This document shows positions 28,144-54,575 of a stretch of 64,000 nt of DNA, piece after piece. The notes below the pieces were generated by a model. It did no database searches and was not told the DNA's origin. It worked only from the letters and a program-made list of their open reading frames with translations. The DNA comes from Dehalococcoidia bacterium (GTDB lineage: Bacteria > Chloroflexota > Dehalococcoidia > UBA6926), in contig CBDBNN010000003.1 of the NCBI GenBank assembly GCA_965207895.1, positions 1,111,268 through 1,175,267 on the forward strand, read 5' to 3'. How positions within the stretch are numbered: position 1 is the first letter of the stretch; each line of letters opens with the position of its first letter. Both the position numbers and the translations under genes were made by a program.

Positions 28144-28350
28144 GCCTTCCAGTCCTCCTTCAGCTTCACTGTGGTAAGGGTCGATCCCATCTGTGCCACG
28201 TTGCGACATCTGAAACTGACAAAGTCAGCCAACAAAATCCTACACAATCTTGTCGTATAAATCCAATTGCGAAGATTGGGCATCTGCTGAATACCACGCT
28301 ATAGTGATGGCTGAACGCAGCCGCAAAAATCTTGATTTTGTCGAGTCTCG

Positions 28351-28422
28351 TGGGCGATACAGGAATCGGAACTGTGATCTCTTCCGTGTGAAGGAAGCGC
28401 TCTAAACAGCCGGTCAGCGCCT
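28351..28422 (-). pseudogene. Degenerate tRNA-Val(CAC) / integration-site remnant
   Basis: Reverse complement ...TTTAGAGCG-CTTCC-TTCACAC-GGAAG-AGATC-ACAGTTCCGATTCCTGT-ATCGCCCA: anticodon arm and 3' acceptor strand intact, T-loop and 5' acceptor strand degraded. Confidence 0.7.
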
Positions 28423-28506
28423 CGTGCGCCATGCCCTTCCATGCATAAAATCGTAGAATCGTTAGGAAGACACTTTCACGACAACTCATCATTGGACAAG
28501 AAGTAC

Positions 28507-31500
28507 ATGAAGATTAGCCTGGATTCAAAGTTCGCTCTCATCTATGTGATATTGACCATCGTGGCGCTTCTCGCGCTCGCGGCCTGCAATAACAGGGATG
28601 AGCCCACCCCCACGCCGGAACTCACAGCAACCGCGGCTCCAGTCGCTACGGTCACTGCGGTTACGCAGCCTACGGCTACCCCTGTGCCAACTGCGACGCT
28701 ATCCCCGACGAGCGAACCCGCGGCGACTGTTTATCCGGTTCCTACTCCCAGTTCAACTCCCGCGCCGGAGCCCGATGTTCCGCTGGCATTCGACCCAAAT
28801 GTGATCCGGGGCACCCTCTCCAACGGCCTAAGCTACTATATTCGCCACAATGAGGAGCCGCAGGGCAGGGCGCAGATTTCCCTTGCCGTTAAGGCCGGCT
28901 CCGTCCTTGAGGCGGACGACCAGCAGGGCTTGGCCCATTTCGTGGAACACATGGCCTTCAACGGTACCGAGCGCTTCGCCAAGCAGGAGATTGTCGAATA
29001 TCTTGAGTCCATCGGAAGCACGTTCGGCCACGATCTGAACGCCCGCACCGGCTTCGACGACACCCTGTATTTCCTTGAGATTCCAACCGACAGCCCTGAA
29101 ATCACTGAGACTGCTTTCCAGATCCTCAGTGACTGGGCCTTCTCGATATCCTTCGATCCGGAAGAGGTGGATCTTGAGCGCGGCGTTGTCCTGGAGGAAT
29201 GGCGCCTCTCCCAGGGATTCGATTCTCGCCTCCAGAAGAAACTACTCAACCTCCTTTTCGGCGACTCGCTCTACGCCAGCCGCGCCCCCATCGGCCTTAC
29301 CGGGATTATCGACAACGCCACGGCGGAGAGCCTTCGTGCCTACTACGAGCGGTGGTACAGGCCCGACCTGATGGCCGTTGTCGCCGTGGGCGACTTTGAC
29401 GTGGAAGTCATCGAAGCCAAGATCAAGCAGCACTTCGCACCACCACCGGAAGGCGAGGCCACGCAAGAGCGCGCTGCCGGTGGAGATGCCACCAGCAGGC
29501 CGCTCGTCGATGTTCCGGGCCACGAGACCCCGCTCATCGAGGTGTTCACAGACCCCGAGTCGCCCGCCACCCAGTTCGTACTTATCCGTAAGCTCCACCC
29601 CGAAAAGGGACAGGACTTGGCTGCGTTCCGACGCCAGGTTGTAGAGAATCTCGGGTTCATGATGCTGAACGCGCGGCTCTTTGAGCGCGGGCAAACCGCC
29701 GAACCGCCGTACATCACTGCCAGCGCCGGACGTTCTCCTTACGTGTATACGCTGGACATCGCCACGTTCTCGGCCTGGGTCGAGACGGATGGCGTTGAGG
29801 TGGGCCTCGACGCCATGCTCGAAGAGATTCAGCGCGCCCACCAGCACGGCTTCACCGCCGGCGAGCTGGAGCGCGAGAAAAGCAATCTGCTCAGCGCGGT
29901 TGAGAGCCAGTACAAGGAGCGTGACCAGGCGCCATCGGCCGCACTCTCAAACGGCTACACCAATCACTTCTTCACAGGGTCGCCGGTTCCCGGCATCGAG
30001 GCCGAGTGGCAGATCTACCAGGAGCTGCTGCCTCAAATCTCACTGGAGGAATTTGCAGGCGTGACGGAGTCCTGGGCACAGACCGAAGACCTCGCCCTCC
30101 TGGTAGTGCGTCCCGAAGAAACCGATGTTGCCGGCTCCGATGTCGACCTCAGCTCGACGTTGCTGACACAGCTCCGGACGGCCAATGCCCTGACAGTGGA
30201 GCCTTACGCTGACGACCTCGGCGACATCACCTTGCTGGCCAATCTGCCGGAGCCGGGAACCATCACCGCCGAAGAGCGGATCGAATCCATCGATGCCGTG
30301 AAGTGGACGCTGTCCAACGGCATCACAGTGATCGCCAAGCAAACCGACTTCCGCGACGACGAGGTGTTGTTCAGAGCCTTCAGCCCCGGTGGGCACTCGC
30401 TCGTCACGGATGAGGAACACCAGTCTGCTCTTTACGCCGCCACGCTCATCGTCGGCAGCGGCGTGGGCCCGCACGACAAGGTTACCCTGGACAAACTGCT
30501 GGCCGGCAAGAGGGTTGAGGTGACCCCATACATCGAAGAACTGTTCGAGGGGTTCAGTGGCAGTGCCTCTCCTGAGGACTTGGAGACACTGTTCCAGCTC
30601 ATTACGCTGTACGCTACCGAGCACCGGCTTGACCCGGATTTCTTCACCCGGTACGAGACGAGACTGCATAGCGTTGCCGAGTTCCGCGCCGCTGACCCCG
30701 ACTCAGTCTACTTCGACCACGTGAATAGGGTTCTCAGCCAGGGACATCACCGCGGGCGGCCCCTCTCTGTTGAGGTGCTGAAGGAGTTGGATCTGGAGGC
30801 TGCGGAGTCCGTCTATTCCGACCGTTTTGCGGACCTGGGCGACGCGACGTTTGTCTTCGTTGGCGCCTTCGATTGGGACATGCTGCGGTCATTGACAGAG
30901 AACTATCTGGCCGCCCTGCCGTCCAGCGGGCGTGTTGAGGAATGGCGAGATGTCGGACTCGACCCGCCTACGGGTGTGGTAGACGAAGTAGTCCGCAGCG
31001 GCGTGGAGCCGCGTAGCAGGACGATTCTGCTGTACACCGGCGACATGGACTGGAGTCGCCAGGAGGCTCTCACAATTGATGTGGCCGGCGAGATTCTCGG
31101 TATCCGTCTGCGCGAGCGAGTGCGCGAGGCACTCGGCGGCACCTATAGCATCGGCGTCGACACAAGTGGCACTGAAGCGCTGCCGGACCCCGAGTACCAG
31201 GTCTACGTCCTCTTCGGCAGCGACCCTGATCGCGTTGAAGAACTCAGTGGCGAGGTGTTTGCCCAGATTGACTGGCTGCAGATGGGCGGCGAGCAGAAGT
31301 ACCTCGATACTGTCAAGGAACTGTTCAGGACGAACCGCCAGGAGCAGCTACGGGAGAACGGATTCTGGCTGAACGAGATCCGGATGACTGCACAGCGTCG
31401 AGAGTCTTTCGATGACATTGTCGCCTATGACGACTGGCTGGAGGCGCTGACACTTGAGCAGGTTGCCGCCACAGCGGAGCGCTACCTCATTGATTCCCGC

Positions 31501-31536
31501 TACGTACGCGTCGTCCTTCTCCCCGAAGAGGAATAG
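28507..31536 (+). CDS. M16 family zinc protease (PqqL-like) lipoprotein with Pro/Thr linker
   Basis: LAAC lipobox, PT-rich linker, GLAHFVEHMAFNGT, LNART. Confidence 0.92.
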   Translation: MKISLDSKFALIYVILTIVALLALAACNNRDEPTPTPELTATAAPVATVTAVTQPTATPVPTATLSPTSEPAATVYPVPTPSSTPAPEPDVPLAFDPNVIRGTLSNGLSYYIRHNEEPQGRAQISLAVKAGSVLEADDQQGLAHFVEHMAFNGTERFAKQEIVEYLESIGSTFGHDLNARTGFDDTLYFLEIPTDSPEITETAFQILSDWAFSISFDPEEVDLERGVVLEEWRLSQGFDSRLQKKLLNLLFGDSLYASRAPIGLTGIIDNATAESLRAYYERWYRPDLMAVVAVGDFDVEVIEAKIKQHFAPPPEGEATQERAAGGDATSRPLVDVPGHETPLIEVFTDPESPATQFVLIRKLHPEKGQDLAAFRRQVVENLGFMMLNARLFERGQTAEPPYITASAGRSPYVYTLDIATFSAWVETDGVEVGLDAMLEEIQRAHQHGFTAGELEREKSNLLSAVESQYKERDQAPSAALSNGYTNHFFTGSPVPGIEAEWQIYQELLPQISLEEFAGVTESWAQTEDLALLVVRPEETDVAGSDVDLSSTLLTQLRTANALTVEPYADDLGDITLLANLPEPGTITAEERIESIDAVKWTLSNGITVIAKQTDFRDDEVLFRAFSPGGHSLVTDEEHQSALYAATLIVGSGVGPHDKVTLDKLLAGKRVEVTPYIEELFEGFSGSASPEDLETLFQLITLYATEHRLDPDFFTRYETRLHSVAEFRAADPDSVYFDHVNRVLSQGHHRGRPLSVEVLKELDLEAAESVYSDRFADLGDATFVFVGAFDWDMLRSLTENYLAALPSSGRVEEWRDVGLDPPTGVVDEVVRSGVEPRSRTILLYTGDMDWSRQEALTIDVAGEILGIRLRERVREALGGTYSIGVDTSGTEALPDPEYQVYVLFGSDPDRVEELSGEVFAQIDWLQMGGEQKYLDTVKELFRTNRQEQLRENGFWLNEIRMTAQRRESFDDIVAYDDWLEALTLEQVAATAERYLIDSRYVRVVLLPEEE

Positions 31537-31810
31537 TGCCCGTTAATCAGTTCCACAGGTGGCCCAGACGCCGGAGCGAGAGACTGTGGAGCCGGATGAA
31601 CGAACCTCAGAGCTGCCACATGGCCGCTGATAGCAGGAGCGACGAGGACTATCCGTGACGATTGTGCCGGTCTACATCTTGAGGAGAAGGCGCAGACCTG
31701 AACGATGCGCTTTTGAACTTATCTTCTTTCACAGGTGTTCAGGCTGACGAGCATCCGTGCTTATCACAGAGTGGGCAGGGGGCTTCAGCAGTAGATCTAT
31801 TGCAAGAAAC

Positions 31811-31841
31811 GGTATGGGCGATACAGGTCGATACTGCGAAC
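31811..31841 (+). other. att-like half-site 1 (GG-N13-ATACTGCGAAC)
   Basis: GGTATGGGCGATACAGGTCGATACTGCGAAC; shares TGGGCGATACAGG with the tRNA-Val remnant at 28351. Confidence 0.65.
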
Positions 31842-32026
31842 CACCTCTAGGTTCGTGAAGGAATGATGGAACCTGGAACCGGGTAGGGGGACCCGTCCGG
31901 ACACTATGAACGAGGCTTCAGCACCGCCGTACACTTAGCCCGGATGAGCAATCCCCTATGTTTCCGACCGAACCTGCAATAAAAGATTTCCCGGTTGGAT
32001 TCGACTACGCAATGAGTTTTGTCTGT

Positions 32027-32515
32027 TCAGCTTCGGTCGGCAAGCCTGCCGTCGAGAATCAAAAGCCCGGCCTTGTCATCACCGATAAGGGTGAGATCGT
32101 CGATGATGTCCTGAGCGGCCTTTTCCTCTTCCACTTGCTCTTCAACAAACCACTCAAGGAAGACGTGTGAGGGGTAGTCAGAGTGCTGCTGGGCAGTTCG
32201 GTACAGGTTCTCAATCATTCCGGTGACCTTGCGCTCATGCTCAAGTGACGCCTTCATCGCGCCAAGGCAGGAACCGAAATCCTTGGGCGGCTCCGCAAGC
32301 GACTGCAGGGTCACACGGCCGTCACGGTCATTGATGAAGTCGAAAAACTTCATCGCATGGGTGGACTCCTCCTTTGACTGGAGCACCATCCAATGAGCGA
32401 AACCGCGCAGATTCTCTGCTTCAAAGTAGGCGGCCATGGCGAGGTAGAGGTGCGACGCGTACAACTCCGCATTTAACTGCTCATTGAGGACTTTTTCCAT
32501 CTCCGGATGAATCAT
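32027..32515 (-). CDS. ftnA: Non-heme ferritin
   Basis: LNEQLNAELYAS..YL, EESTHAMKF, LEHE, WFVEEQVEEE. Confidence 0.92.
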   Translation of the reverse strand: MIHPEMEKVLNEQLNAELYASHLYLAMAAYFEAENLRGFAHWMVLQSKEESTHAMKFFDFINDRDGRVTLQSLAEPPKDFGSCLGAMKASLEHERKVTGMIENLYRTAQQHSDYPSHVFLEWFVEEQVEEEKAAQDIIDDLTLIGDDKAGLLILDGRLADRS

Positions 32516-32639
32516 TTCCGCCTCCCGATCACGCGATTCAACTGTATACATCTCTTATATGAGACTAATTGAATTATACAGAGTTTTTACAAGAATCTAT
32601 ACTTATTTGATGAAATGTTATTCAAGCTCACTTAACACT

Positions 32640-33329
32640 TTAGTAGGCACGATAATGTTCTTCAACTCGCCCTGTGAACAGCATTGCTCCAATGACAATC
32701 AGCCAGACAAAGAAGATGATGCCCGTTAACTGGTGGACCGTGACGAACTCACGGACCCAGATGAGCTGCATTGCTGCGCCGAGTACTGCGGATATCGGCG
32801 CAACTATCCGCAGCCTCCCTCCGACTCTGTATTGATACGGCGACGCGGCAATTAGCGCCAGGCCGGCAGCCGAGAAGCCCGCGACCCCCGTAAGCCAACG
32901 AATGGTCGCGATGGTCTCGTTGAATGACCCGGCGGATTCATCGCCACCCGGCAGCGATACCGCCAGAACGATCGCAAGCAGGCCGGAAATGATGGTCAGC
33001 ATGCCCGAAATGCCAAAGATTGCGGGAACGACGGGTGTCGCGAGGCGTTCACGAATTATCCATGTTCGCGAGAGATACAAAGCGGCAACCGCGAGTGTGA
33101 CTCCGGATGCCAGCCGACCGGCTCCGCTCAATGCATACGGGAATCTACTGTCTGCGATTCCCTCAAGGGTTTCCTGCAGCGTCTCGCCATCGGCGTCTGC
33201 GGCCACGCGCCCGGCAACGGCAACCAACGTCGTTAGGGCCGTCAGTATCAGCAACAAGCCTGCAGCGCGCGCTGCTCTGTCAGGCTCTTGCCGGGCAGAA
33301 GATTCTCCACCGTTGGCGCTTTGTTGCAA
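32640..33329 (-). CDS. Membrane protein (DUF4386-like)
   Basis: About 6 hydrophobic helices; no diagnostic motif. Confidence 0.55.
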   Translation of the reverse strand: MQQSANGGESSARQEPDRAARAAGLLLILTALTTLVAVAGRVAADADGETLQETLEGIADSRFPYALSGAGRLASGVTLAVAALYLSRTWIIRERLATPVVPAIFGISGMLTIISGLLAIVLAVSLPGGDESAGSFNETIATIRWLTGVAGFSAAGLALIAASPYQYRVGGRLRIVAPISAVLGAAMQLIWVREFVTVHQLTGIIFFVWLIVIGAMLFTGRVEEHYRAY

Positions 33330-33561
33330 CTCGCCCTCCTTCGGTGACCAGTGGCTCGTTAGGCGACCCGGCGAAATATTAAGCTACCTTAATATTCTTG
33401 CAACGGACAACCTACGCTGTCCACTCAGGTCATCGTATGAAAGGAGCAACGCGCTCCTACTTCTCGTGCTGTACCATCAAATCGGAGCCATGCCTACTGA
33501 CACCGCCAAGCTGCGCGCTGCCATCCTGGAGCTGACGGCGAACGCTGCCGACTAAGAGTTG

Positions 33562-34251
33562 CTAAACCGGCCCGGAGACGCGGATATGCTGAGCCCACCG
33601 GGTGGGAATGGTGACGCTTTCCTCTCCAACCTTGAGTGTGAGGTGGCCGGCTCTGAGATCAAGCTCTTGAACAACCACCTCGTTACCGGGCGTAATCCCA
33701 TTGTCATGGACGAAGTGAAGCAGCTCGCTATCGTCTTCACCTTCCTCTGTGATGCGCCAGACGACAATCGTCTCGCCGACGCTGGTGTCAGTCATCTTGC
33801 GAGCGCCGAGGAGCCGCTGTTCATCAGCTGATCCGGGGAACGGGTTGCCGTGAGGGCAGGTCGTCGGATGCCCCAGGGACTCGTAGAGATGTTTCTCGAG
33901 TTTCGATGACAGTGTGTGCTCCATGTGCTCCGCTTCATCGTCTGCGTCCGCCCAGTCGTAACCCAGGCTATCCACGAGCAGTCTTTCAATGAGGTAGTGA
34001 CGGCGAATGATAGACTCGGCTATCTCTCTCCCTTCTGGCGTCAGCTGAATCCCTGTGTTCTGGTCGATGACAGCAAGGCCCTGCCGCTCCATCCTCTGAA
34101 ATGACTGAGTCACCGCTGATGCAGACACGCCCAATCGTTCAGCGAGACGTGAACCAACAACTCTCGATCCTTCCCGAACGGTGGTGTAGATGCGGATCAG
34201 GTATTCTCCCTGAACCGCGCTTGTACCCTGGGGCGATTCGTCTCTGGTCAT
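33562..34251 (-). CDS. DtxR/MntR family metal-dependent repressor with FeoA-like domain
   Basis: EYLIRIY, LAERLGVS, IIRRHYLIERLL, EHMEH, CPHGNPFP. Confidence 0.92.
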   Translation of the reverse strand: MTRDESPQGTSAVQGEYLIRIYTTVREGSRVVGSRLAERLGVSASAVTQSFQRMERQGLAVIDQNTGIQLTPEGREIAESIIRRHYLIERLLVDSLGYDWADADDEAEHMEHTLSSKLEKHLYESLGHPTTCPHGNPFPGSADEQRLLGARKMTDTSVGETIVVWRITEEGEDDSELLHFVHDNGITPGNEVVVQELDLRAGHLTLKVGEESVTIPTRWAQHIRVSGPV

Positions 34252-34446
34252 GTACCTGTAGTTCCTCCGGATTTCTGTTGCGTTTCATTGTACGACGGTC
34301 CGCCCACCGACGATCTTTCAGAACTGCTGTCGTAAGCTGATTGTTCCGAGAAGCCGGTCGTGTCCTCCCTGTGGCTGTGCTCATGAGAATGATCGATACG
34401 GCAAAAGGAGGAAAATCTTGTGGGCGAATCGAAAGAAATGTGAATC

Positions 34447-34477
34447 GGTATGGGCGATGCGGGTCAATACTGCGAAC
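34447..34477 (+). other. att-like half-site 2
   Basis: GGTATGGGCGATGCGGGTCAATACTGCGAAC, 28/31 identical to the site at 31811. Confidence 0.65.
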
Positions 34478-34707
34478 TGAGCGCGTGTTTGAGCTGGTCG
34501 TGTAGTAGCAAACGCTCTTCCAAGCGCGATCTTAGCCCGACGGACTTGCCGGTTTCTGCCAACAAGTTTGGCTGCTATGACGACAACCTGAGCCCATTGG
34601 TAAGGATTGCCCTCATATACTGAACAGACCGCGTCAGTTCTTAAGAAGCGCTGTGGCCCCGGCCCAGGCAAGATGGATTCGAAAGGATTGGCTAAACTGC
34701 GCAAGTT

Positions 34708-37700
34708 ATGGTGCATCCAAGAGTTGGCAGAACCGAGTTAAGCAAGCCTATAGGGATCGCGGTCCTAATCGGGCTTATCTTTTTGGCTCTTGTTGCCTGG
34801 GCTCATTTGTGGGATGGAGGTCCGCTGCACTCTGTGTTGGCGCAAGACGCGCAGCCCGTCATTCATTCGATAGAACCGGCGCCTCCCACCTGCCTCGTCT
34901 TGCGTTCCAATGCCTCTTCAGAAAGAACACTCATTATCAATGGGGTGGATCTAAATTCCATGTCGGATTCACGGCTTCAGATTCGAAGACGTTTGGATAC
35001 GAGAGACCCGTACTTCATCTTCGGGCCGGAGGTCAATTGGGAAAGCCCGAAGCGCATCACCCTTGATCTGGGACTGCTGACTGAAAACCTGGACCATTCT
35101 CCAGTGTTCTTTCTCCAGGTGCGCCTGTTGGATGAGGACGGGAGAGGACTCTCCAATTGGTCGGATTATTTCTTGCTCGCCAAAGACGAGGCTTCATGCG
35201 AAGCGGCGGTACCCCCACCGACCCCAACTCCTGCTCCGGGCACGCTCCCCGGCGCATATCCCGTAAGAGGAGTGTCTGGAGACCTGTGGGCAGATGTCGT
35301 TTTGGGAAAGCCGGATTTCGCGCAGATAGCCCCAAAGAGTGTCGTGCCATTCAAAGTGAACAATCCCGGGGGAGTTGTTGTTGACCGTTCGGTCGAGCCG
35401 GGCAGGGCCTACGTCTGGGACTCCGGCAACAACCGAATTCTTGGAATTGATCTTGGCGAATGCTATGCCGGCGATGGCGGTTGTCCTGCCACCATTGTCA
35501 TAGGGCAGCCGTCCGGTTACGACCACTCGGCTTGCAACGGAGACAGTGGAGTCCAGCGATTTCCGTACCGAGCGCAGGCCTCTGCTGAGACCTTGTGCGG
35601 CGTGCCGGATCACTCCCTCAGCCCGTGGGAGGCCTATTCCTTCGTGACGATGGAGGTAGACAATGATGGAGCTCTGTACGTTCCTGACTCCTTCAATCAC
35701 AGAGTCTTGAAGTATGAGAATCCCTTTGAGACTGACACACTAGCCGATGAAGTCTGGGGGCAGGATGATTTTTCCGGCATGGTGTGCAACCGAGGCAATC
35801 TCGAAAGACCTACGGCCGAGACTCTTTGCTTCCACTCCGACTCGGTTATCTTCACGCTGAATCGTTTCGGGTCCGGTGTGGAATTCGATGCAGATGGAAA
35901 CATGTGGGTAGCAGATACCGGCAACAACCGTGTTCTGCGATTTCCTACAGATCAAGCCACAGGAGAACCCGCCAAGACCGCGGACCTCGTGCTGGGTCAA
36001 TCAGCTTTCACAAGTGCAAGCCCGGGAAGCTTCCTAAGCGGGATGCATGCTCCTTCGTCCGTAACCTTTGATTCGGAGGGGAACTTGTATGTGGCGGATG
36101 CCGCCAACGACCGGATTCTATTATTTGAACCACCATTCGAATCCGGGCAGAGGGCGACAACCACGTTTGCCAGTGAACTCCATCATCCGACGTCCGTAGA
36201 GTTTGATCCATTTGGCCGCGGTATATGGGTTGTTGATGCAGGGAATTATATGGTCGAACTCTGGGACCCGACCGGAACCAATGTAGTTGCAGTTCTCGGA
36301 AAGCACTCATTCATGCCGGACAAAAGGTGTGGCCCGTCACTGGGTGGAGTTCCCGGAGGGGCGCAATTCTGCCGGCTCGGAGGGAGTGTTGGGATAGATA
36401 GTCAAGGAAATGTACTGGTTCCGGTCTATCACGATGTGGCCGAGGTCTTTCGATTCCCAACCAGTGGCGTGGAACACAATAGTGTGCAGGGGGTCGATCC
36501 TGCGGGTCGCCTCTTCTTCCCACCATCCGAAGACAACTTCAGAGACAGGTATGGAATTCATTCCCCGCGAGGTGTCGCAACATGGAGGGATCAGCTCATC
36601 GTCTCTGACACGAAGAGACTCATGTATTGGAACGGACTGAACACACTGAGCAACGGACGGCCCGCCGACGGCGTGCTTGGGGATACCTACGCGTTTGGGG
36701 AATGGCAGTATTGCTGCGGTCCGATCAATGTTGACGAGGCGGGCCGGCTGTGGGTGCTGTCATTCGAAGGCAGGAAATTCATTGACGTCTATCAACTGCC
36801 TCTGACTGAGTACTCCGTACCGCTTCATACCATTTGGAAGGAGTCGGTCTCATTCCCGGTACTGGGGACTAATGACCGGATTGTGCTGGGGGCACGCGTT
36901 TTTGGCGTTGCACCGGTAGGTAAAAGTGATCTTCTCTGGCTCAGCGATACGGACAATCATCGTGTCCTCCGTATTCGTAATCCACTGACAAATCCCGTGG
37001 TTGATGTGATTCTTGGTCAGAAGGATGCTGAAGGCACACTGTGCAATCAGGGTTGGACCGGGAGCCTCAGGCTGGACAGACTCTGTTACCCAGGCGGGCT
37101 GTCGATTGACAGGATGGGGAATCTATACGTCTCAGACCACGCCCTCGAAATCGAAGGCAATTTCCGCCTCCTAATTTTCATGGCGGGATCAACACCTACA
37201 GATAACCACCAAGCAGTTTTCGGGCCGCTGGCGACATCCGAGTTCAGGCGCTCTGCAGTGGGAAGACATAATGTATGGGCCGATCCCTGGGAACCAACTG
37301 CGGTTATTCAGAAACACACCAAGAGCCTTACAGCGGCAACGTGGGACCCCGCATTCGACAGCGCAAACCGTATGGTTGTGGGTTACAACGCCTATATTGG
37401 CCCCAGATTCGTGGGGGTCTATGAAGATCCTCTTGACGGACGAGAACTACCCGACTACTTCCTCAACGACTACGGGTCAATGAACTTCACAACAATCTTC
37501 GACGATAACGACAACCTCTATGTGGGAGACATCAATCGCGGCCGTGTACTCATGTACCTGAATCCCTTTGACAATCAGCAACAAGCGCCAATGGAAGTTT
37601 CGGAATCAAGTGAAAACGTTCCGAGCCCCGAATACCCCATACGGATTGAAGCGGTGGATCCGATCCCTCCTTTCTGCCTGGCTCGTCATTCCAACAACGT

Positions 37701-38310
37701 TTACGAGACCACACTGGAGTTGAAAGTCGACCAAGTTCCGGATCCTGCCTCGACACTGGAATTCCGTAAGGTGACATCGTTATTCCGGGAATTCATTGAC
37801 ATGAGAAACCCCTCGGTACAGATCGAGGATTCAGTCATCACTATCAAAGGAATGCGGTGGTGGAGGCGGTTCTGGCCCCACGTCGGCCGCGCGACGTTGA
37901 CTGTCAGGGTCCTTTCGGACGGCGAACCAATCTCCAATTGGTCTCCGGCATTCCTTGTGGCCGACAATGTTGGTGCCTGCGGCTTCGCGCTGCCCACACC
38001 TACTCCAACGCCCAAGCCAACGCCAACCAACACTCCGATCCCGTCGCCCACACCAACTGCCACTGCAACGGCAATTCCTACACCGACGCCAACCCTGACG
38101 CCGACCATCGTGTCGACTCCTACTCCCACTGAAATACCGGCTCCTTCACCCACAGTTCCACCGATATCCCCAACACCCGAGAGGGAAACCCTGGAGACGG
38201 ATGAGAGTGTCTCTGAGATGCCACTTTGGCCACTCATTTCGGCTATTGTCGCTGTGGTCGGTGTGACAGTCGCACTCGTCTACATCGTGAGGAGAAGGCG
38301 CATGACCTGA
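34708..38310 (+). CDS. Surface-anchored NHL-repeat (beta-propeller) protein
   Basis: Signal/TM; repeated YV.D..N.RVL NHL motifs; PT-rich stalk; C-terminal TM followed by RRRR. Confidence 0.85.
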
Positions 38311-38421
38311 GCGACCTTCGTCTTTGGACGCATCTTCGTCTGAATTGTCTTTGGCCGCGTGGTATCCATGCTTATCGTGAGGTGATCAGGAGGCTCCAAC
38401 AGTGGATGTAGCGCAGGAATA

Positions 38422-38452
38422 GGCGTGGGCCAGAGCCTACCGAACTGCGAAC
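38422..38452 (+). other. att-like half-site 3
   Basis: GGCGTGGGCCAGAGCCTACCGAACTGCGAAC with the same spacing; the preceding ~100 bp also align with 31705-31810. Confidence 0.55.
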
Positions 38453-38646
38453 TTTTCGATGGGAAGTCCCAATATAGACGGGGGGTCCCTCAGCGACGGG
38501 CCTTGCCAAATCAGAGGTCGATCAAAATGGGGTACCCATCGAGAGCGAAGTTTAGCTCCTGATGGGACTTGCCATCTTGTGTTTGGCATTACTTCAGCTT
38601 ATAGTGTAAGGAGTCAGCTGCCTAGTGACGTGGAGGTGTTATTGCC

Positions 38647-39275: not shown

Positions 39276-39396
39276 TCGGCAGGGGAATAGCCATGAAGGG
39301 CTTACAGACTCGAATCAGAGGGGACCGCCGGTCTGTATCGCGAGTTCTCGTTCGTTCCAATTGCTCCAAGCGTGCGGGGAATTGCCAGGAGCATTG

Positions 39397-42300: not shown

Positions 42301-42604
42301 CAGCCTCAGCACAAGGATCCAACACGTTGCGGTTGAAGTGTGATGTAGCTGCAATGATGAGGAAGGAGAAGGCAGTGGCTAGATTGGAAGGCCCGGACAA
42401 ACGACACTTTGAAATCGTTCCCCACCCAGCCATCAGGGGGCAGCACGTTCTGGGGGAGTTCGTCGCCAGCCTCAGCGCTGGAGGCAGCTACGTCCTTCGC
42501 AGATACTGGACATTTGAAGAGGTCTATGAAGCTCTAGAGGGCTTCAGGCAACTATAGGTTGGTTTTTGCTGCTGTATGGGTCCGATAGAAGGTAGAAGCA
42601 GAGG

Positions 42605-45586: not shown

Positions 45587-46587
45587 GTGGATTGGGGACC
45601 CGGGAAGGAACGTTGAAATGCCCGCCGATGTCCACCAAGCGATGAAATCGCGATTGCCCGTTGTGGCCGTTGGCCCGCATAGCGTGTTACGCGGTTACTT
45701 TTCCCTCGCGCTAAACAAGGTCGCCTAGCAGTCCGGTAGGGAGTGTCCAATAGGGAGGGCGTTCATATCCTCGCGCCAGCTCACAGCGTGTCCGGCTCGT
45801 TCCGCTTAAGGTCGGGGCGACCACGCCGTCTCGCGCCTCAGGGTACAACTTCCTACAATACAATCAATACAACAAAGTTGCGATGGAGCGTCAACTACTC
45901 ACTTGCCAAATTGCTCGTTCCAACCCCCGTCTCCCGACTGTTTCCTGTTGGAAACGGCCCTCATTGTATTCTGCAATGTAGTTTGATTCTCCTTACAGCC
46001 CGTGTAGGGTGAAAACCGTCCCTGAGCGATTGTAGTCTGACGCGTCAGCCCTTGCGCAGACACTCGCTTCGGCGTCGGTGCGCCCGACATCTCATTGATC
46101 TTCGCCGACTGGGGTTTCATCCCTCGTGCATCTCACCTACAGGCGCACGATATACCACTGATGTACCACGCTTCCCGACCTTCCCGTGTACAACATGTAC
46201 CACTTCAGCTAGGGCGCATGTACCACCCGTCGCAACCGGCCCCCGACAAAAAATGTTCGCCGTCATCGTCCCATAGGGGGCTGGATTCGCCCCGCGTCAG
46301 CTTTGAAAACCGCCCCGATGTACAACATGTACACGGGTTCGTTTCCGTGTACTGCCCCCTGACGTCCAGCTCGACTAATCCCAAGGTCATGGGCTGACGC
46401 ATCAACGGGCTAATGGTCCCATTACATCAATGTAGTCCCCTGCGAGGGGCTACAGGCGCGTAGTCCCTTCCGAGGGATACCGCTCGCTCTCCCAGGTCCG
46501 CAGACTGGTCTAAGGACGCCGGACATCCGGCGTCAACGGCGGTGAGGCCAGTCTGCAATCCCGCCGAGACCGACACGGAGGAGCGGG

Positions 46588-46800
46588 ATGAAGAGGTCCG
46601 TTAGAAAGAAACCAACAGCGTGCGTTCCTAAGTCACCGAGGAAATCATCGCCAGGGTACACCGCCGCGCAGCGAGAGCAACTGCGGCGTGCGCTACGTAT
46701 CCTGGCCCGGATGATCGTCCGCGCTCATCTGCGGGGTGAGATACCCGAGGCAGCGTCGCCGTCCACGAAGCCGCCGTCAGAGAAGGGGTCCGGCGGATGA
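46588..46800 (+). CDS. Small basic protein of mobile element A
   Basis: YTAAQREQLRRALRILARMIVRAHL is homologous to 55554-55820; GGAGGAG RBS. Confidence 0.6.
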   Translation: MKRSVRKKPTACVPKSPRKSSPGYTAAQREQLRRALRILARMIVRAHLRGEIPEAASPSTKPPSEKGSGG

Positions 46801-46985
46801 ACCGCCATGAAGCAAGCCCCGAATCCTCAACGCCGCGTCATCCTGGCGGCGGCTCAGGGCATCGTGATCACGGCCCCACCCCTACCACAAATCCCACCCC
46901 ATAACAACGGCTTCCAAGGCATTACATGCGAGCAATTTCCCGGTCAAGATGGGATGTTGGGACATCAGCAAGTTGAGGCATCGGA

Positions 46986-49031
46986 TTGGTAGCCACAGAT
47001 ACACGAACACAAGCATCGAACGGCGCGGCGCAGGCCGGAGCGGACCTCGACGGGGCGGTCCGGGACTACGTGCGCACCTACGCCGTGCTGCATGGCAGGC
47101 CCAAGGCGGCCGAGGCCCTCGGCGTCTCCCGCCACACCCTGTGGCGTTTCCTCAACCGGGGCCACGCGGGGCGGGCCATACCCCGAGCGGTGCTGGAACG
47201 CGTGGGCAAGAGCGCAGAGGCGCTGGAGGACGCTGAGGAGCGGTTGATACTCCAGGCGCAAGCCAAACGGCGACTGAAGGACGGCGGCCCGGTCGCCGAG
47301 CGGCGCACACGCCTTCTGCGCGAGGCCCTTGAGGACGCGCTGCGGCTGCTGTGCGCAACGCCCCTGGCCACCGTGGACGAACTCTCCCGCTTCGGCAGAG
47401 TCCCCACCTCCACTATGAGAGAACGCCTCGGCAAGCTCGCCAATCGGGGCCTGGTGGACTCCGTGTCGCACCAGTTGAGCGTTCTTGGCTCTCGACCCCA
47501 GCGCCGCTACTTCCCCACGAAGCAGGGCATCGTCGCCGGAGGGAGGATCGAGCACGGCACGGACCACTTCCTCAGCGAGTATCCGGTGTCCAGGCAGTGG
47601 TTCCGGCTGCTGGCCGAGCGCATGGACGCCGTGGCCGTCCTCTACCGCGTCGCCGCCATGATCGCCGACGCAGACCCGCATGAGAAGCCCGTGCGGGTGG
47701 ACCACTACCGCAGCGGCCCCTACGACATACTGCTCACTCTGTCCGGGGGACGCTCCATCGGCATCATCCGCCAGGGTGCGACCCTACCCACCTCCAACCT
47801 GCGCTACCGTCTCAGGAGCATAGAGCGCCTCCCCAGCCGGGAGAGGCCCTTCGCCACCCTGGTGCTGACCCACGCCGACCAGGCCACCCGCAGGGCGATA
47901 CGCTCACTGGGAGACCCCTCGGAGCACCGCAGGACCTTCGCGGCGACGGAAGGGGAGCTTCTGGCCGTTGCCCACACCGGCGCCGTCTGGCAACAGTGCG
48001 GAGACGGACGGGACAACGACCCGCCCGTGCGCATCGACCCCGGCGCGTCTCTTAGGAGCATCCTGGCGTGGATGGATCGGCTGTTGGACTCGTCCCATTC
48101 GTCCTTCCGCGACAACCCGAGGCCAGATCTCGAAGACCTCTACTCCTCCCGTGTGAAGGCCGCCATGCCGGAGCCTGCCCAGCAACTCACGTCCTCTATC
48201 TCGGCGCGGCTAACACGCGTCGGGAAGGACGCCCTGGACCTGCTGTCGGCATGGCCCCTGTGCACCCGTGAGCAGCTTGCGGGGCTGATGGGCGGCGTCA
48301 CCCTGCGCCGGGTCAACCAGGTGATCCGCTCCCTCCGTGAGCACGACCTCGTGCTGGAGGACGGCTCCCTCCTCATGCTCACCGACGAGGGGCTGACGCA
48401 CCTGGCCCGCCGGGACCGGGCCGCCGTCGGCCTCACCCTCGACCGCTGGAGCCCCGAACCATCGGACTCCAACCCCAACGTCTACGCAGGGACGGCCCTG
48501 CGTGCCCTGGCCGCCCAGTTCCGCCACCACGCCGGCGTCGTCGGCTTCGCTTCCGCCCTCTCAGCCGAGGTCGCCCGCTCCCCGGACTACGACCTGTTCG
48601 ACCTGCTGCCCACCCACCGCTCCAGCATCGGATACCGCTACGACCAGACGACCTACGCCATCCACCCCGACGCCTCCTTCACCCTGGAGTACAGAGGCGA
48701 GTGGCGTCCCTTCCTTCTGGAGTTCGAGCGGAGGGCCACCACGCCGAAACGCATCCCCAAACGCCTGAGGTCCTACCGACGCTACTTCCGGAGCGGCTGG
48801 GCAAAGCGAGACCACGAGGGACACCTGCCCCACGTGCTCTTCGTCTTCGAGTCCCCCGACAGCGAGACCGCCTTCCTCGACATCGCCGACAGCGTGGACG
48901 ACGCGCCCATCGTCACATCGAACACTGTGGACCTTGCCGAGCATGGCGTCCTGGGCAAATCGTGGATACTGCCGCCCCCATATTCCCTCCACAGAAGGCC
49001 CCTGGCCCTGACGTATCAGCCTGCGCAATGA
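46986..49031 (+). CDS. HTH + replication-relaxation (Replic_Relax)-like protein
   Basis: N-terminal HTH (AAEALGVSRHTLWRF), winged-helix segments, HH.GV, HPDA...FLLEFER. Confidence 0.65.
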   Translation: MVATDTRTQASNGAAQAGADLDGAVRDYVRTYAVLHGRPKAAEALGVSRHTLWRFLNRGHAGRAIPRAVLERVGKSAEALEDAEERLILQAQAKRRLKDGGPVAERRTRLLREALEDALRLLCATPLATVDELSRFGRVPTSTMRERLGKLANRGLVDSVSHQLSVLGSRPQRRYFPTKQGIVAGGRIEHGTDHFLSEYPVSRQWFRLLAERMDAVAVLYRVAAMIADADPHEKPVRVDHYRSGPYDILLTLSGGRSIGIIRQGATLPTSNLRYRLRSIERLPSRERPFATLVLTHADQATRRAIRSLGDPSEHRRTFAATEGELLAVAHTGAVWQQCGDGRDNDPPVRIDPGASLRSILAWMDRLLDSSHSSFRDNPRPDLEDLYSSRVKAAMPEPAQQLTSSISARLTRVGKDALDLLSAWPLCTREQLAGLMGGVTLRRVNQVIRSLREHDLVLEDGSLLMLTDEGLTHLARRDRAAVGLTLDRWSPEPSDSNPNVYAGTALRALAAQFRHHAGVVGFASALSAEVARSPDYDLFDLLPTHRSSIGYRYDQTTYAIHPDASFTLEYRGEWRPFLLEFERRATTPKRIPKRLRSYRRYFRSGWAKRDHEGHLPHVLFVFESPDSETAFLDIADSVDDAPIVTSNTVDLAEHGVLGKSWILPPPYSLHRRPLALTYQPAQ

Positions 49032-49776
49032 CCACGTTCTCCGTTCCGAACCCTTCCAATAGGGGCTGTCCCAGCAGCTTTGCTGGGACAACTTGCACAG
49101 GTGACCGGTCACCAATCTCCGCTACCGCGCTTAGATGTACAATCCGTTGCAGAACCGACCGGTCAGGCCAGTTTCCCCGCTGCGTCACACACCCCCGTCA
49201 CCATCGCCCCTCAGCTACGATCCCTGCCTACGACAGCCTCGCCCGGAGAACTCCGACTGAGCAGCAACTTGCCACAGGAGCATGTTCCAACTTCCCCACC
49301 GAGCCGTTCCCAGGACTTCCTATAGGGGACAAAAGGGCATTCCCACTACTTACCGTGTCAGCCCCCAACAGCTCCCAAAAGTACAATTCGTTGCAGAATA
49401 GGCGGGAGCGCCGATTACGCCGACTTCCACCTGTTGGACGCTCTCGGCGGGATGACCGGTCACTAATCTCTCTGCCGCCCTCCAAAGAGGTGTCCGCATT
49501 GCTTGCTGCGATGTGGCTCCGATGTGGCTATCCTGCCGACTTGCATTTCTGCAACTGACGCAAATCCCTGTACACCCCCACGACATCAAAACCGGCCTCC
49601 GAAGGCGTTCCCGGCGGCTTCAGAAGGGGTATCGACCGCCTCAACCTGCCCCCACCGGATCGCTCGTAGCGATGTCGCCTGGCCCGATTCTCGCCATCTC
49701 TCCCTTGACGGCAGGACTGCGGTTGCGAGATGATATAGAGTAAGACGCAGTGCCATATCAAGGGACAAAAGGAGCC

Positions 49777-49992
49777 ATGCCCGTCAAGCCCAGGAACACC
49801 GACACCGTAACCTTCTCGCTGCCGCCGGAGACTGCGCAGGAGCTTCGGGACGTGGCAACGGATGAGCAACGCACCGTGAGCGAGTTGCTCAGAGAGGCCA
49901 TACGCCTCTACATGGAGGAACGTGAGTGGCGCATAAAGGAGCGGATGCAACGACGGCGTTCACGCCAAACGAGACAGGACAGGGAAGGGTAA
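49777..49992 (+). CDS. Ribbon-helix-helix (CopG-like) regulator
   Basis: VTFSLPPE...RTVSELLREAIRLY. Confidence 0.85.
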   Translation: MPVKPRNTDTVTFSLPPETAQELRDVATDEQRTVSELLREAIRLYMEEREWRIKERMQRRRSRQTRQDREG

Positions 49993-49994
49993 AG

Positions 49995-51089
49995 ATGAGT
50001 CAGACGAATGACTGCACTCCCGTGGCCCTGTACACCAGGGTGCCGTCCCTCGTCGTCGTGCCGTTCTGCCTTATCGTCGTGATTCTTGCGGGTTGCGCCC
50101 AGGAATCTGCCCCCAACGAAACCGACCCCGTGATCGTGGGGTTGATCACCAAGACCGAAGGCAACCCCTTCTTCGTCACCATGGCCGAGGCGGCGCTTCA
50201 GCGTGCCGAGGAGCTTGACGTCGAGCTGCGCACGTACAGCGGCGCCTACGACGGGGATGCACAGGCGCAGATAGCGGCCATCGAAGAACTGGTCGGGGCG
50301 GGGGCGAAGGGCATCCTCATCACCCCGTCGGACCCGCTGGCTCTAGAACCGGCGGTCGCGCAAGCGCGTGCGGAGGGCCTGCTGGTGATCGCCCTCGACA
50401 CGCCCTTCGATCCGCCGGACACGGTTGACGCAACCTTCGCCACAGACAACTTCCGGGCCGGTGAGCTGATCGGCATCTGGGCACGGGAAAAGCTGGGACC
50501 GCTGGCGGCTCAGACCCGGATCGCGACGCTGGACGGCTACGAGACGCCGGTCACCGTCGATGTGATGCGCAACCAGGGCTTCCTCCACGGCTTCGGCATC
50601 GACATCAAGGACCCGGGGAGGAAGTACGACGAGGACGACCCGCGCATCGTCGGCAGCGCTACCACCATGGGCGCGGAAGCAGGCGGGCGCAGCGCGATGG
50701 AGCGCCTGATGCGCATGGACCCGTCGATACGACTGGTGTACGCCATCAACGAGCCCGCGGCGGCGGGAGCATACACGGCACTCCGTTCCATGGGGCTGGA
50801 GCGGGAGGTGCTGATCGTTACCATCGACGGTTCCTGCTCCGGCGTGAGCAGCGTCGCCAGGGGTGAGCTTGGAGCCACCGCAATGCAGTTTCCGGTCCGC
50901 ATGGCAGTGCAGGGCGTCGAAGCCGTGGTCGAGTTCGTACGGACCGGACAGAAGCCACAGCCCCCAACCGGGCGCGACTTCCACAATACGGGCGTGACGT
51001 TGGTGAGTGCGGAGCCGGTCGCCGGTGTGCCGTCCATTGACACCGAACAGGCCCTGACGGAGTGCTGGGGGGCGAGTCCAGCGGGGTGA
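49995..51089 (+). CDS. Sugar ABC transporter substrate-binding lipoprotein (FrcB/RbsB-like)
   Basis: LAGC lipobox, ITKTEGNPFF, ATDNF.AG, INEP.A.G, TIDG. Confidence 0.85.
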   Translation: MSQTNDCTPVALYTRVPSLVVVPFCLIVVILAGCAQESAPNETDPVIVGLITKTEGNPFFVTMAEAALQRAEELDVELRTYSGAYDGDAQAQIAAIEELVGAGAKGILITPSDPLALEPAVAQARAEGLLVIALDTPFDPPDTVDATFATDNFRAGELIGIWAREKLGPLAAQTRIATLDGYETPVTVDVMRNQGFLHGFGIDIKDPGRKYDEDDPRIVGSATTMGAEAGGRSAMERLMRMDPSIRLVYAINEPAAAGAYTALRSMGLEREVLIVTIDGSCSGVSSVARGELGATAMQFPVRMAVQGVEAVVEFVRTGQKPQPPTGRDFHNTGVTLVSAEPVAGVPSIDTEQALTECWGASPAG

Positions 51090-51142
51090 GCAGACTCCGC
51101 TCTCGCGACACCGACAACATGACCAATATGAAGGAGAAGCCA

Positions 51143-52936
51143 ATGAGTGAACGAACCGACCTGATACCCGTCGCCCTCTACGCCAGGGTCTCCAGTGACC
51201 GCCAGGACGTGGACCTGTCCGTGGCCGCCCAGATGCGGGCGCTCAGGGACTACGCCCAGAAGAACGGCTACGTCGTGGCAAGGGAGTACGTGGACGAGGC
51301 CGAGAGCGGCAGGATCGCCGACCGGCCCCAGTTCCAGAAGATGCTGGACGAGGCGGGCAAGCCCGAGGCCCCGTTCCAGGAGATTTTGGTCTGGAAGTTT
51401 AGCAGGTTCACCCGCAAGCGGGAGCACGCCGTCGCCTTCAAGTCCATGCTCCGCAGACGAGGCATCCGCGTCGTCTCCATCACCGAGCACGCCGACGACT
51501 CTCCCACCGGCAAGCTCATGGAGGCCATCATCGAGTCGGTGGACGAGTTCTACAGCGCCAATCTCGCAGAGGAGGTCTCCCGTGGGATGCGGGAGGCCGC
51601 GTCCAGGGGCTTCTGGGTCGCCACCTTCGCCCCCTACGGCTACCGCAAGGTCTACGTCCAGGACGGGGCCAAGAAGCGCCCCAAGCTGGAGCCGGACCCG
51701 CCCGCCGACGCCGTGGTCAAGCGCGTCTTCGACATGGCCCTCCGGGGTCAAAGCTCCCTGGACATTACCAAGACCCTCAACGCCGAGGGCGTCCCCTCTC
51801 CCAGGGGCAAGCAGTGGCTCAAGAGCGCCGTCCACACCATGCTCACCAACGAAGCCTACACCGGCGTTCTGGTGTGGGGAACCAAGGCGAAGGAAAACGG
51901 GGAGCCGGTGCGGGTGGAGAAGGCGTTTCCCGCCCTCGTCTCCAAGACCAAGTACCGCCAGGTGAGACGGCTCCTCAAGTCCCGCGCTCCCAAGGTCGTC
52001 CACCCCCGCCGGGCCTCCAGCCCCTACCTGCTGAACGGGCTGGTCAAGTGCCAGAGGTGCAGGAAGGCCCTCACCGCCGCCGAAGCCAAGGGCGGCAAGT
52101 ATACCTACTACGTCTGCCACTCCCTGCTCAAGAAGGGCAGCGGCGCCTGCACCACCCCCAGGCTCAACGCCAAGCGATTCGAAGGACTGATTGTGGAAAA
52201 CATCCGGGACAACATCCTCACCGAGTCCAACATCACCGAACTGGTCAAGATCGTGGACGAGGAGATGGACGGGGTGGCCAGGGAGCAGCGCCAGCGGCTG
52301 AAGGTCGTCGAGGAGGAGCTGGATGAGGTGAAGCGGCGGCTGGGGCGCATCTGGCAGGTGATCGAGACGACCGAGATCGAGATGGCCGACGCCACGGACC
52401 GCATCAAGGAGCACCGGGAGCGCAAAGAGAAGCTGGAGGCCGCCGCCGAGGATGCCAGGGCCATGCTGTCGAAGCGCAGGGTGACGCTGGACAAGGTGGA
52501 GACCATCGCGGCCTTCGCTCTGGACATGAGCAAGTTCCTCAGGAAGAGCGAGACCACCGAGTCGCGGGCCTTCATCCGGTCCTTCGTCAGCGAGATCGAG
52601 GTCAGGCCCGGCAGGGCGACGATCCACTACAGCATACCCACCCCGGAGGACTCTCCCATAGGCGGGGCTGACCTTGCGGAGGTCACCCTCGGCAGGGGAG
52701 TTCGCAGTATGGGAGTCGCTGGTGGGCTACCGTTTACGGAAGATACCACCGAGCCGTTCAGCGGTATCTGCTGCACTTTTTTTCCTGGAATCAAGCTATC
52801 GTCCGGCATGGGGACGGCGTATCGGACGACGGCGTTGTCAGGCAGGAGTTCGATCTCCCTGACGAAGGTCTCGATGAAGGCCCGGCGCTCGGTCAGCTCG
52901 CTCTCCTTCAGGAACCTGCTCATGTCCTTGGCGTAG
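51143..52936 (+). CDS. Large serine recombinase (element A)
   Basis: YARVSS, KFSRFTR, APYGY, zinc ribbon CxxC...C...C, coiled coil; the last ~70 codons read antisense into the other recombinase. Confidence 0.93.
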   Translation: MSERTDLIPVALYARVSSDRQDVDLSVAAQMRALRDYAQKNGYVVAREYVDEAESGRIADRPQFQKMLDEAGKPEAPFQEILVWKFSRFTRKREHAVAFKSMLRRRGIRVVSITEHADDSPTGKLMEAIIESVDEFYSANLAEEVSRGMREAASRGFWVATFAPYGYRKVYVQDGAKKRPKLEPDPPADAVVKRVFDMALRGQSSLDITKTLNAEGVPSPRGKQWLKSAVHTMLTNEAYTGVLVWGTKAKENGEPVRVEKAFPALVSKTKYRQVRRLLKSRAPKVVHPRRASSPYLLNGLVKCQRCRKALTAAEAKGGKYTYYVCHSLLKKGSGACTTPRLNAKRFEGLIVENIRDNILTESNITELVKIVDEEMDGVAREQRQRLKVVEEELDEVKRRLGRIWQVIETTEIEMADATDRIKEHRERKEKLEAAAEDARAMLSKRRVTLDKVETIAAFALDMSKFLRKSETTESRAFIRSFVSEIEVRPGRATIHYSIPTPEDSPIGGADLAEVTLGRGVRSMGVAGGLPFTEDTTEPFSGICCTFFPGIKLSSGMGTAYRTTALSGRSSISLTKVSMKARRSVSSLSFRNLLMSLA

Positions 52937-54318: not shown

Positions 54319-54335
54319 GTGTGCGTCCTCCTGTT

Positions 54336-54533: not shown

Positions 54534-54575
54534 GGTGGGTATCATCCCCTTTTTTGCCTGTCGAGATATCGCTCA

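Follow-up and report, generated by a model that had tools for sequence, protein, structure and literature searches.

Repeated half-sites of a large serine recombinase family mark a probable tandem island array at a tRNA-Val hotspot in a Dehalococcoidia genome

The window analyzed here is a 64,000-nucleotide stretch of the genome of a Dehalococcoidia bacterium (GCA_965207895.1, contig CBDBNN010000003.1, positions 1,111,268 to 1,175,267), for which an earlier note, made from the sequence alone, had proposed an array of cargo modules separated by attachment (att) half-sites of a serine recombinase. Exact copies of the layout TGGGC-N11-RW-ACTGCGAAC (equivalently, TGGGC-N13-ACTGCGAAC) were found on the plus strand at 31815-31841, 34451-34477, and 38426-38452 and are referred to as sites 1, 2, and 3; they are the three sites of that note, whose coordinates began 4 nt too early. 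Site 3 forms the left end of a complete integrative element of 14.3 kb (38426-52725, plus strand) that carries, according to Pfam, MazE/PIN genes, an Eco57I-like methylase gene, genes for two solute-binding proteins and a Replic_Relax protein, and a large serine recombinase (LSR) gene at its right end. This gene, encoding recombinase A (51062-52936, plus strand), has the domains Resolvase (PF00239), Recombinase (PF07508), and Zn_ribbon_recom (PF13408), and its open reading frame (ORF) runs through the center of the att site. A second LSR gene, encoding recombinase B (52627-54393, minus strand), has the same three domains, is convergent with and overlaps the first, and provides with its 3′ end the right arm of the junction at 52724-52725. 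Both translations contain ALYARVSSDRQ, which we take to be the catalytic serine motif near the N terminus, and recombinase A matched the solved structures of SPbeta YokA, TP901-1 integrase, and TnpX.

Comparisons were made with 22 genomes of the same genus and then with loci across the class Dehalococcoidia. G000 denotes the genome under study (contigs C1 to C3, 2.14 Mb in total), and the other G-numbers denote genomes of relatives. Protein domains were assigned with Pfam and RNAs with Rfam (tRNA gathering score, 29 bits), and tRNA genes were called with ARAGORN. LSR genes were counted per genome by tblastn using recombinase A as the query (E ≤ 1e−20). Homologues were identified in 19 of the 22 genus genomes, with up to 11 matches in a genome; G000 itself has 11.

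The full motif did not occur in 100 dinucleotide-preserving shuffles and was found only four times in the genome, three times in the window and once at C2:486672. A profile built only from the sites of relatives recovered the same four sites together with two weak matches ∼107 to 110 kb upstream of the window, so the genome-wide scatter that the earlier note had named as damaging to its proposal was not observed. The bare 9-mer ACTGCGAAC has 21 genomic copies, compared with ∼16 expected (4^9), and 6 of the 21 lie in att contexts. Given this near-chance frequency, its match in the recombinase gene alone could be fortuitous; the comparative data show otherwise. Members of the site family were present in 17 of 22 genus genomes, with 69 matches at ≤1 mismatch (40 of them exact) versus 29 for a reversed control. 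When the copies were aligned, the right flank was conserved for ∼40 nt and fell into two classes, while the left flank was variable; the site is thus the left terminus of something that extends rightwards. Most copies are preceded by TGG, so that the minus strand ends in ...GCCCACCA, resembling the 3′ end of a tRNA. Site 1 has its central GG at 31816-31817 and ACTGCGAAC at 31833-31841, and site 2 (central GG at 34452-34453) includes a conserved 30-nt extension to 34506, with counterparts of 87 to 95% identity in G009 (two), G015, and G017. These two belong to what we call the Val type, and the central GG of site 3 lies at 38427-38428.

The partner of these sites was found inside the recombinase A gene. 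A mirror arm, GTTCGCAGTAT, lies at 52700-52710, and 13 nt further on, within the 3′ end of ORF 51062-52936, is a GG at 52724-52725, as the earlier note had reported. Comparison of recombinase 3′ ends extended this arm, termed P, to GTTCGCAGT, N11, TGGT, and the central GG, that is, GTTCGCAGT-N15-GG (52700-52725, plus strand). Among 47 recombinase 3′ ends with an exact GTTCGCAGT, TGGT preceded the center in 46, and the center itself was GG in 42, AG in 3, and AC in 2. At constant spacing, this arrangement is the exact mirror of GG-N15-ACTGCGAAC at sites 1 to 3. The symmetric site of ∼50 bp suggested previously from this one locus, GTTCGCAGT-N15-GG-N15-ACTGCGAAC, was therefore recovered from independent elements. 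In the attP reconstructed for the 14.3-kb element, site 3 and the P arm at 52700-52723 have 18 of 24 dyad matches and correspond to pair I13 of the repeat finder.

The 3′ ends of the recombinase genes frequently adjoin tRNA genes. In the genus, 44 such ends were inspected (40 fetched and 4 from G000) with ARAGORN and a search for the 9-mer, and 35 adjoin a convergent tRNA gene (Met, Ala, Lys, Glu, Ile, Val, or Arg); across the class this was the case for 47 of 80 recombinase loci, and Leu joins the list of targets when both sets are taken together. An exact GTTCGCAGT lies 20 nt ahead of the tRNA end in 17 of the 18 genus loci that have both features and in 18 of 18 such loci in the class. The single exception, the tRNA-Lys gene of G000, has a distance of 22 nt because CCA is not encoded there. 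In every tRNA row of the alignment the T-loop sequence TCGAAC occupies positions +13 to +18 from the center, and in the attP arms CGAAC occupies +20 to +24. Relative to the tRNA half of attB, the block in the attP arms is displaced outward by 6 bp; LSR attP half-sites place the zinc-ribbon motif ∼5 bp further out than attB half-sites do. Recombinases 92 to 94% identical to recombinase A were located at tRNA-Val(TAC), tRNA-Ala(CGC), tRNA-Ile(GAT), and the 3′ end of a recombinase gene; those of 93 to 94% identity at tRNA-Val(TAC), tRNA-Ala(CGC), and another non-tRNA site have a P arm that is identical or differs by one base. The earlier designation of tRNA-Val as a target was borne out in relatives, where tRNA-Val(CAC) is genuinely used by this LSR family. 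Together, these comparisons strongly support an att-site assignment in which sites 1 to 3 represent half-sites of LSR attP sequences.

Empty and occupied versions of one target could be compared at tRNA-Lys(TTT). G007 has a three-site array whose chromosomal flank directly adjoins this tRNA gene in G013 and G012, so that the latter two genomes carry an empty attB, and G007 carries an occupied site with attL (flank joined to P′, the arm carried by sites 1 to 3) and attR (P joined to the tRNA). The attB reads ...gggacaT GG GCCGCCCGGGGGTCGAACC, the attL reads ...ggggctgT GG GCCTAGAGGGATGATACTGCGAAC, and the attR reads GTTCGCAGTaccatccgaggtggt GG GCCGCCCGGGGATCGAACC. Only TGGGCC is common to the att partners. 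So short an identity is consistent with a serine recombinase and confines the crossover to this hexamer; the symmetry of the arms singles out the GG as the probable crossover dinucleotide.

Breaks in synteny around the 14.3-kb element fell at the same position. In G031 a recombinase copy with 91.8% identity over 1,011 nt matches the window up to 52726 and is then followed by tRNA-Ile(GAT), and at the opposite end the homology of G031 and G008 to the window begins at 38425, with unrelated left flanks. In G004 a gene for an NHL-repeat protein, a counterpart of the one left of site 3, has a downstream flank that meets, at T|GG| and with nothing in between, the 3′ end of a gene of the recombinase B type; the homology of this gene to that of recombinase B (90.5%) begins at 52720. 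Since its flanks are contiguous, G004 provides the empty site for the 14.3-kb element, and this empty junction indicates that the element inserted into the junction of two earlier pieces rather than into a tRNA gene. Breakpoints mapping to the GG, which the earlier note had anticipated, were thus observed within a few bases of it in G031, G004, G008, and the tRNA-Lys comparison.

The recombinase A and B genes overlap tail to tail by ∼300 nt (52366-53083), the axis of inverted repeat I2 (52724.5) coincides with the GG, and each ORF tail is encoded antisense to the partner gene. Overlapping convergent pairs were also found in G003, G006, G031, G032, and G033 and at loci L100, L101, L106, L109, L114, L139, and L140, and the arrangement is conserved across Dehalococcoidia. 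Recombinases with long matches in the class set (to approximately residue 587 to 624 of recombinase A) had no neighboring tRNA gene in 24 of 26 loci, and those carrying the 9-mer face the 3′ end of another recombinase gene. In G004 a 55.7-kb segment (G004:C1:1180095-1235799) beside tRNA-Val(CAC) has outward-facing recombinase genes at its two ends, a B-type gene next to NHL and one of another type abutting the tRNA. This is the appearance expected of a two-recombinase element integrated via an attP between its genes. Some elements may therefore carry two recombinases that flank attP, and a chromosomal convergent pair could be either the intact attP of such an element or the seam of two accreted elements.

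From these data we consider it likely that the repeated motifs represent the P′ half (GG-N15-ACTGCGAAC) of an attP used by an LSR family and that the region is a tandem array of LSR islands at a tRNA-Val(CAC) hotspot downstream of PrkA/AmiS. The family itself is common in uncultured Dehalococcoidia. Sequence comparison shows that the P arm (GTTCGCAGT-N11-TGGT-GG) sits in the last codons of the LSR gene and that elements insert at tRNA 3′ ends. In the inserted state the LSR gene runs into the tRNA on the opposite strand, its TGGT re-supplying ACCA, and the P′ arm remains at the far end of the element. The internal junctions of the array are P|P′ (attP-like) hybrids and not regenerated attB sites; they could take up new elements if the enzyme mainly reads one half of its target. 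Modules without a recombinase would mostly be decayed or trapped elements, at best able to move with a neighbor by cis-mobilization. Recombinase-3′-end scars at G007 junctions and at 28328-28350 of the window imply that at least some of them are decayed elements.

Read from left to right, the array would comprise a recombinase-3′-end scar and a tRNA-Val pseudogene; an M16 peptidase gene with a remnant of an NHL gene end; site 1 followed by ferritin, membrane protein, and DtxR genes; site 2 followed by the NHL gene; site 3 with the 14.3-kb element; and, beyond the GG at 52724-52725, the outward-facing recombinase B gene of the next element. PrkA and an AmiS-like gene lie left of the array on the minus strand, and on the AmiS side homology with relatives stops at 28270-28297. 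The scar (28328-28350, plus strand) derives from the 3′ end of another recombinase type (P arm, CTTGATTTTGTCGAGTCTCG) and abuts the pseudogene; its pattern, GGTTCT-N8-TCAAGTCTGG, recurs in relatives to the left of their sites, and intact recombinase genes have it as their coding 3′ end. The pseudogene (28351-28411, minus strand) is a decayed tRNA-Val(CAC) with a deleted D arm that scored 26.6 bits with the Rfam tRNA model, under the gathering score. It was not called by ARAGORN and is 92% identical to the tRNA-Val(CAC) genes of relatives. Its antisense 3′ end has the 13 nt TGGGCGATACAGG in common with site 1, as noted previously. A live tRNA-Val(CAC) gene lies at C1:200054-200130 and is abutted by a different recombinase gene.

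The first module consists of the M16 peptidase gene (28441-31536, plus strand; Pfam Peptidase_M16 and Peptidase_M16_C), which is found at other loci in relatives. It is followed at 31568-31814 (plus strand) by a remnant of the NHL 3′ end with its downstream flank, an aligned copy of ∼38200-38425 that forms the left arm of junction 1. Accordingly, the left flanks of sites 1 and 3 have ∼180 to 250 nt in common, covering the C-terminal anchor of NHL and the region downstream. The NHL end of G012, together with the first 13 nt of its tRNA-Val, aligns to 31550-31827, the match ending at the point of divergence between P′ arm and tRNA. The C terminus of the NHL protein (38263-38310) is a hydrophobic stretch followed by RRRR, and an out-of-context second copy of this tail, VYILRRRRRP*, follows the M16 gene at 31655-31701. 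Inversion and accretion scenarios for this left part (tRNA-Val pseudogene, M16 gene, and duplicated NHL end) were considered, and no reconstruction was reached.

Module 2 (32027-34251, minus strand) encodes a ferritin, a membrane protein, and a DtxR-family repressor, and module 3 (34708-38310, plus strand) encodes an NHL-repeat protein with a C-terminal membrane anchor. The cargo blocks of the earlier note (M16 peptidase; ferritin, membrane protein, and DtxR; NHL; and MazE/PIN, Eco57I-like, and further genes) were reproduced with Pfam. G013, G007, and G012 have PrkA and AmiS followed, in this order, by a Val-type P′ site, NHL, and tRNA-Val(CAC), and in G007 the homology of the NHL module to the window begins exactly at 34451. 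In G017 it is the ferritin-to-DtxR block that lies between a Val-type P′ site and tRNA-Val; the window holds the two blocks in tandem. The blocks therefore vary between genomes, with breakpoints at the sites, and the modules differ among strains as the array proposal had implied. Recombinase-less modules accumulating at regenerated att sites had been a part of that proposal. Three such modules were confirmed, with no recombinase match between 28351 and 51061, but the att sites at their junctions are the P|P′ hybrids and not attB. Arrays with recombinase-less intervals also occur in G007 (two, ∼2.4 kb), G009, and G032 (four, 8 to 24 kb). Between the end of the homology with the DtxR upstream region of G017 (34292) and site 2 lies a segment of 158 nt (34293-34450) that starts with GCCCACC, an inverted copy of the core, and contains at 34420-34433 the sequence GTGGGCGAATCGAA, which resembles a collapsed tRNA 3′ end.

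Several observations weigh against a tandem LSR array at a tRNA-Val hotspot. The tRNA-Val pseudogene at 28351 is on the wrong side of the array. It lies to the left with its body facing into the array, and elements of this family are always on the 3′ side of the tRNA, so it is not the attB of these modules, as had been suggested. At the right end, motif and Pfam searches from 52000 to the contig end recovered no tRNA remnant or P arm, leaving the array without a tRNA at its right end within the contig. The ferritin and DtxR genes are single copy here and lie ∼5.5 kb apart at another locus in G006, G003, G002, and G011; they may be core genes trapped by rearrangement and not cargo. No GTTC was found at −24 before sites 2 and 3, where the ferritin and NHL modules end on the right, and the lack of a recognizable P arm there casts doubt on whether this enzyme could excise the recombinase-less modules. 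The crossover could be resolved no finer than the shared core TGG(G). To our knowledge, canonical LSRs recombine attP with attB only, and insertion into hybrid junctions would require a relaxed specificity. Finally, the support comes from comparing genomes of a single genus and its class, which are not independent of one another.

The modules without a recombinase (M16; ferritin to DtxR; NHL) could instead be true cassettes, moved singly in trans by recombinase A or its relatives in a serine counterpart of an integron. Each of them starts with an intact P′ site, the NHL end has three different right partners (the tRNA-Val body in G013, G007, and G012, the P′ arm of site 3 here, and a B-type 3′ end in G004), a second NHL-end remnant lies left of site 1, and in G017 the ferritin-to-DtxR block is bounded by a P′ site and tRNA-Val. 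We nevertheless regard such cassettes as unlikely. No P arm stands at the needed spacing at the right end of any of these modules, NHL is always at one chromosomal locus, where its changing neighbors can be explained by insertions beside it, and the recombinase-gene scars at the G007 junctions and at 28328-28350 point to decay. The modules also hold from one to three or more genes, on either strand and with their own upstream regions, and the sites do not fold as hairpins: DNA folding of sites 1 to 3 on each strand gave no attC-like hairpin (z, −0.5 to −1.3 versus shuffles). Integrons combine a tyrosine integrase with attI and a Pc promoter, hairpin attC sites, and mostly promoterless single-gene cassettes. 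The present region resembles them in its arrays of modules separated by recombination sites, and the features specific to integrons are absent. With no platform integrase and attI, no hairpin sites, and multigene modules on both strands, the integron-like label given earlier is only loosely apt.

As 3′ ends of tRNA genes are classic targets of tyrosine integrases and site 1 has 13 nt in common with tRNA-Val, the junctions could also have been produced by a tyrosine integrase using the shared tRNA 3′-end core (TGGTGGGC...) as its overlap, with the overlap of the recombinase gene incidental. This is very improbable. A genome-wide search for PF00589 identified two tyrosine recombinase genes, at C3:729975 and C2:84158, and none in the window, while the gene abutting the tRNA is an LSR gene in 35 of 44 genus and 47 of 80 class loci. 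Moreover, the motif of the far end recurs in mirror image, with a fixed spacing, in the LSR 3′ end, and attB and attP at tRNA-Lys have only TGGGCC in common. Least probable of all is a role of the motif outside recombination, as a functional RNA or a regulatory element (for example, a terminator or a tRNA-like 3′ end): the minus strand of most copies does end like a tRNA, but the motif had no Rfam match at the gathering score or with E up to 5, folded no better than shuffles, varies in its N11 spacer without compensating changes, and marks synteny breakpoints. In an Rfam search of 28000-39000 by E value, only the tRNA-Val pseudogene and one spurious match were obtained, and an attempt by eye to arrange the motif as the T arm and acceptor of a tRNA-like RNA failed in its pairing.

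Beyond the array itself, a broader property of the family can be put forward only tentatively, at somewhat less than even odds: one LSR lineage may recognize universal tRNA features (the T loop and the ACCA end) through attP arms that mimic the T loop and are shifted ∼6 bp outward, and a subfamily may have its attP where two convergent recombinase genes overlap at their 3′ ends. If so, near-identical enzymes could insert at many tRNA genes and at the half-tRNA-like junctions left by earlier insertions, and a serine recombinase could turn any tRNA gene into an open-ended platform on which genes accrete. For the convergent-pair subfamily, integration would leave one recombinase gene at each end of the element and alter the C termini of both proteins.

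The closest known counterparts are the tandem islands downstream of ssrA in Dehalococcoides, which McMurdie et al. (2011, PMC3146451) describe as bounded by repeats of the target 3′ end. According to the same text, DsiB is a CcrB-like serine recombinase of ∼540 amino acids whose gene overlaps ssrA on the other strand with its last ∼70 bp, and many of the islands lack integration genes and were proposed to be cis-mobilizable and to join by accretion (PMC3146451). The concept of such an array was thus already published for the ssrA islands. The islands resemble the present arrays in their occurrence in the same class, in a recombinase 3′ end that overlaps the target RNA gene in antisense, and in their tandem order with some members devoid of integration genes; they differ in that many tRNAs, and not ssrA, are targeted here. 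No recombinase match was found beside the tmRNA gene of G000 (C2:47427-47789). The Pfam scans of the 14.3-kb element did not show the six-gene integration module of the DsiB type (DsiA, RecF-like, ParB, Mom), and Replic_Relax, MazE/PIN, and Eco57I-like genes were found instead.

SCCmec and other staphylococcal islands run by CcrA and CcrB likewise use serine recombinases, enter the chromosome at the 3′ end of a single conserved gene, form tandem composites that include ccr-less pseudo-elements, and, like the present system, have two recombinases with one site. They differ in their target, rlmH (orfX), and in the co-orientation of ccrA and ccrB; the genes described here are convergent, overlap across the site, and target tRNAs. 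Among the tycheposons of Prochlorococcus, 910 of 937 elements have a tyrosine recombinase and the remainder an LSR, according to the preprint describing them (bioRxiv 10.1101/2020.12.28.424599). They are alike in that small marine genomes hold them as cargo islands next to tRNA genes, in that successive integrations push older elements inward, and in their degenerate elements and partial tRNAs. In contrast to them, the whole family here is driven by LSRs, and the flanking repeat consists of a few bases and a mimic arm.

The serine integrases of phages (Bxb1, phiC31, A118/LI, TP901-1, and SPbeta) share with the present family the set of domains, an attP of ∼50 bp with an imperfect inverted repeat, a central dinucleotide, and minimal identity between attP and attB. 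They usually target one site in a protein-coding gene, whereas several tRNAs and the 3′ end of a recombinase gene are used here. In the open-access literature, within the limited scope of our search, no serine integrase family targeting tRNA 3′ ends was found besides the minority of tycheposons with an LSR. Compared with these systems, what would be new is the targeting of many tRNAs, the T-loop-mimic arms, the supply of ACCA from the 3′ end of the recombinase gene, the documented insertion into a hybrid junction, and the overlapping recombinase pairs.

Island insertion of this kind would account for the variable islands that lie next to tRNA genes across a large uncultured group of Dehalococcoidia, in which several genomes come from sponge-type bins, and would extend the mechanism of the Dehalococcoides ssrA islands to ordinary tRNA genes. 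The general view of serine integrases is that they target single sites within protein-coding genes. Recognition of the universal T loop and CCA end by one family, located at a dozen different tRNAs, would be unusual, and as tRNA genes are present in every organism such a family could be of interest for genome engineering. The empty, occupied, and accreted junctions provide a concrete set of ∼50-bp substrates for direct tests.

Assembled contigs of the source sample were inspected over 33500-53499 (four runs from one sample and one study), and no joints at the att sites were found; contigs lose rare variants, so this result is silent on excision. The joints that were listed have a shorter side of 20 to 31 nt and are located away from the att sites. 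One contig of 7,180 nt has one end at 38454, 2 nt beyond site 3, and runs leftwards through site 2; its length would carry it past site 1 as well. Summed contig depth was in the hundreds to thousands over the part with the Replic_Relax, binding-protein, and recombinase genes (46800-53499), compared with ∼10 to 25 for adjoining genes, which suggests many related elements from other organisms of the community.

Other observations concerned tRNA genes and repeats elsewhere in these genomes. At G008:C1:327597-330453, a tRNA-Val(CAC) gene lies within an array between two P′-type sites, one 2.3 kb to the left and one 410 nt to the right; its resemblance to the pseudogene of the window suggests that arrays can take copies of tRNA genes along with them. 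The fourth copy of the motif, C2:486672, is of the variant seen in arrays at tRNA-Lys and lies 40 kb from the end of C2, and a 5′-truncated recombinase gene abutting tRNA-Lys(TTT) lies at C3:10785-12020, 11 kb from the start of C3. C2 and C3 may be neighbors, the gap between them being spanned by an element or array of ∼52 kb. In the element to the right of the recombinase B gene, ORF 54554-55450 has 74% nucleotide identity to part of the solute-binding gene at 42605-44314 (self-match C3:1166038-1166714). Bacterial RNase P RNA class A was identified at 18027-18447 with 222 bits, the only match in the window to reach an Rfam gathering score.

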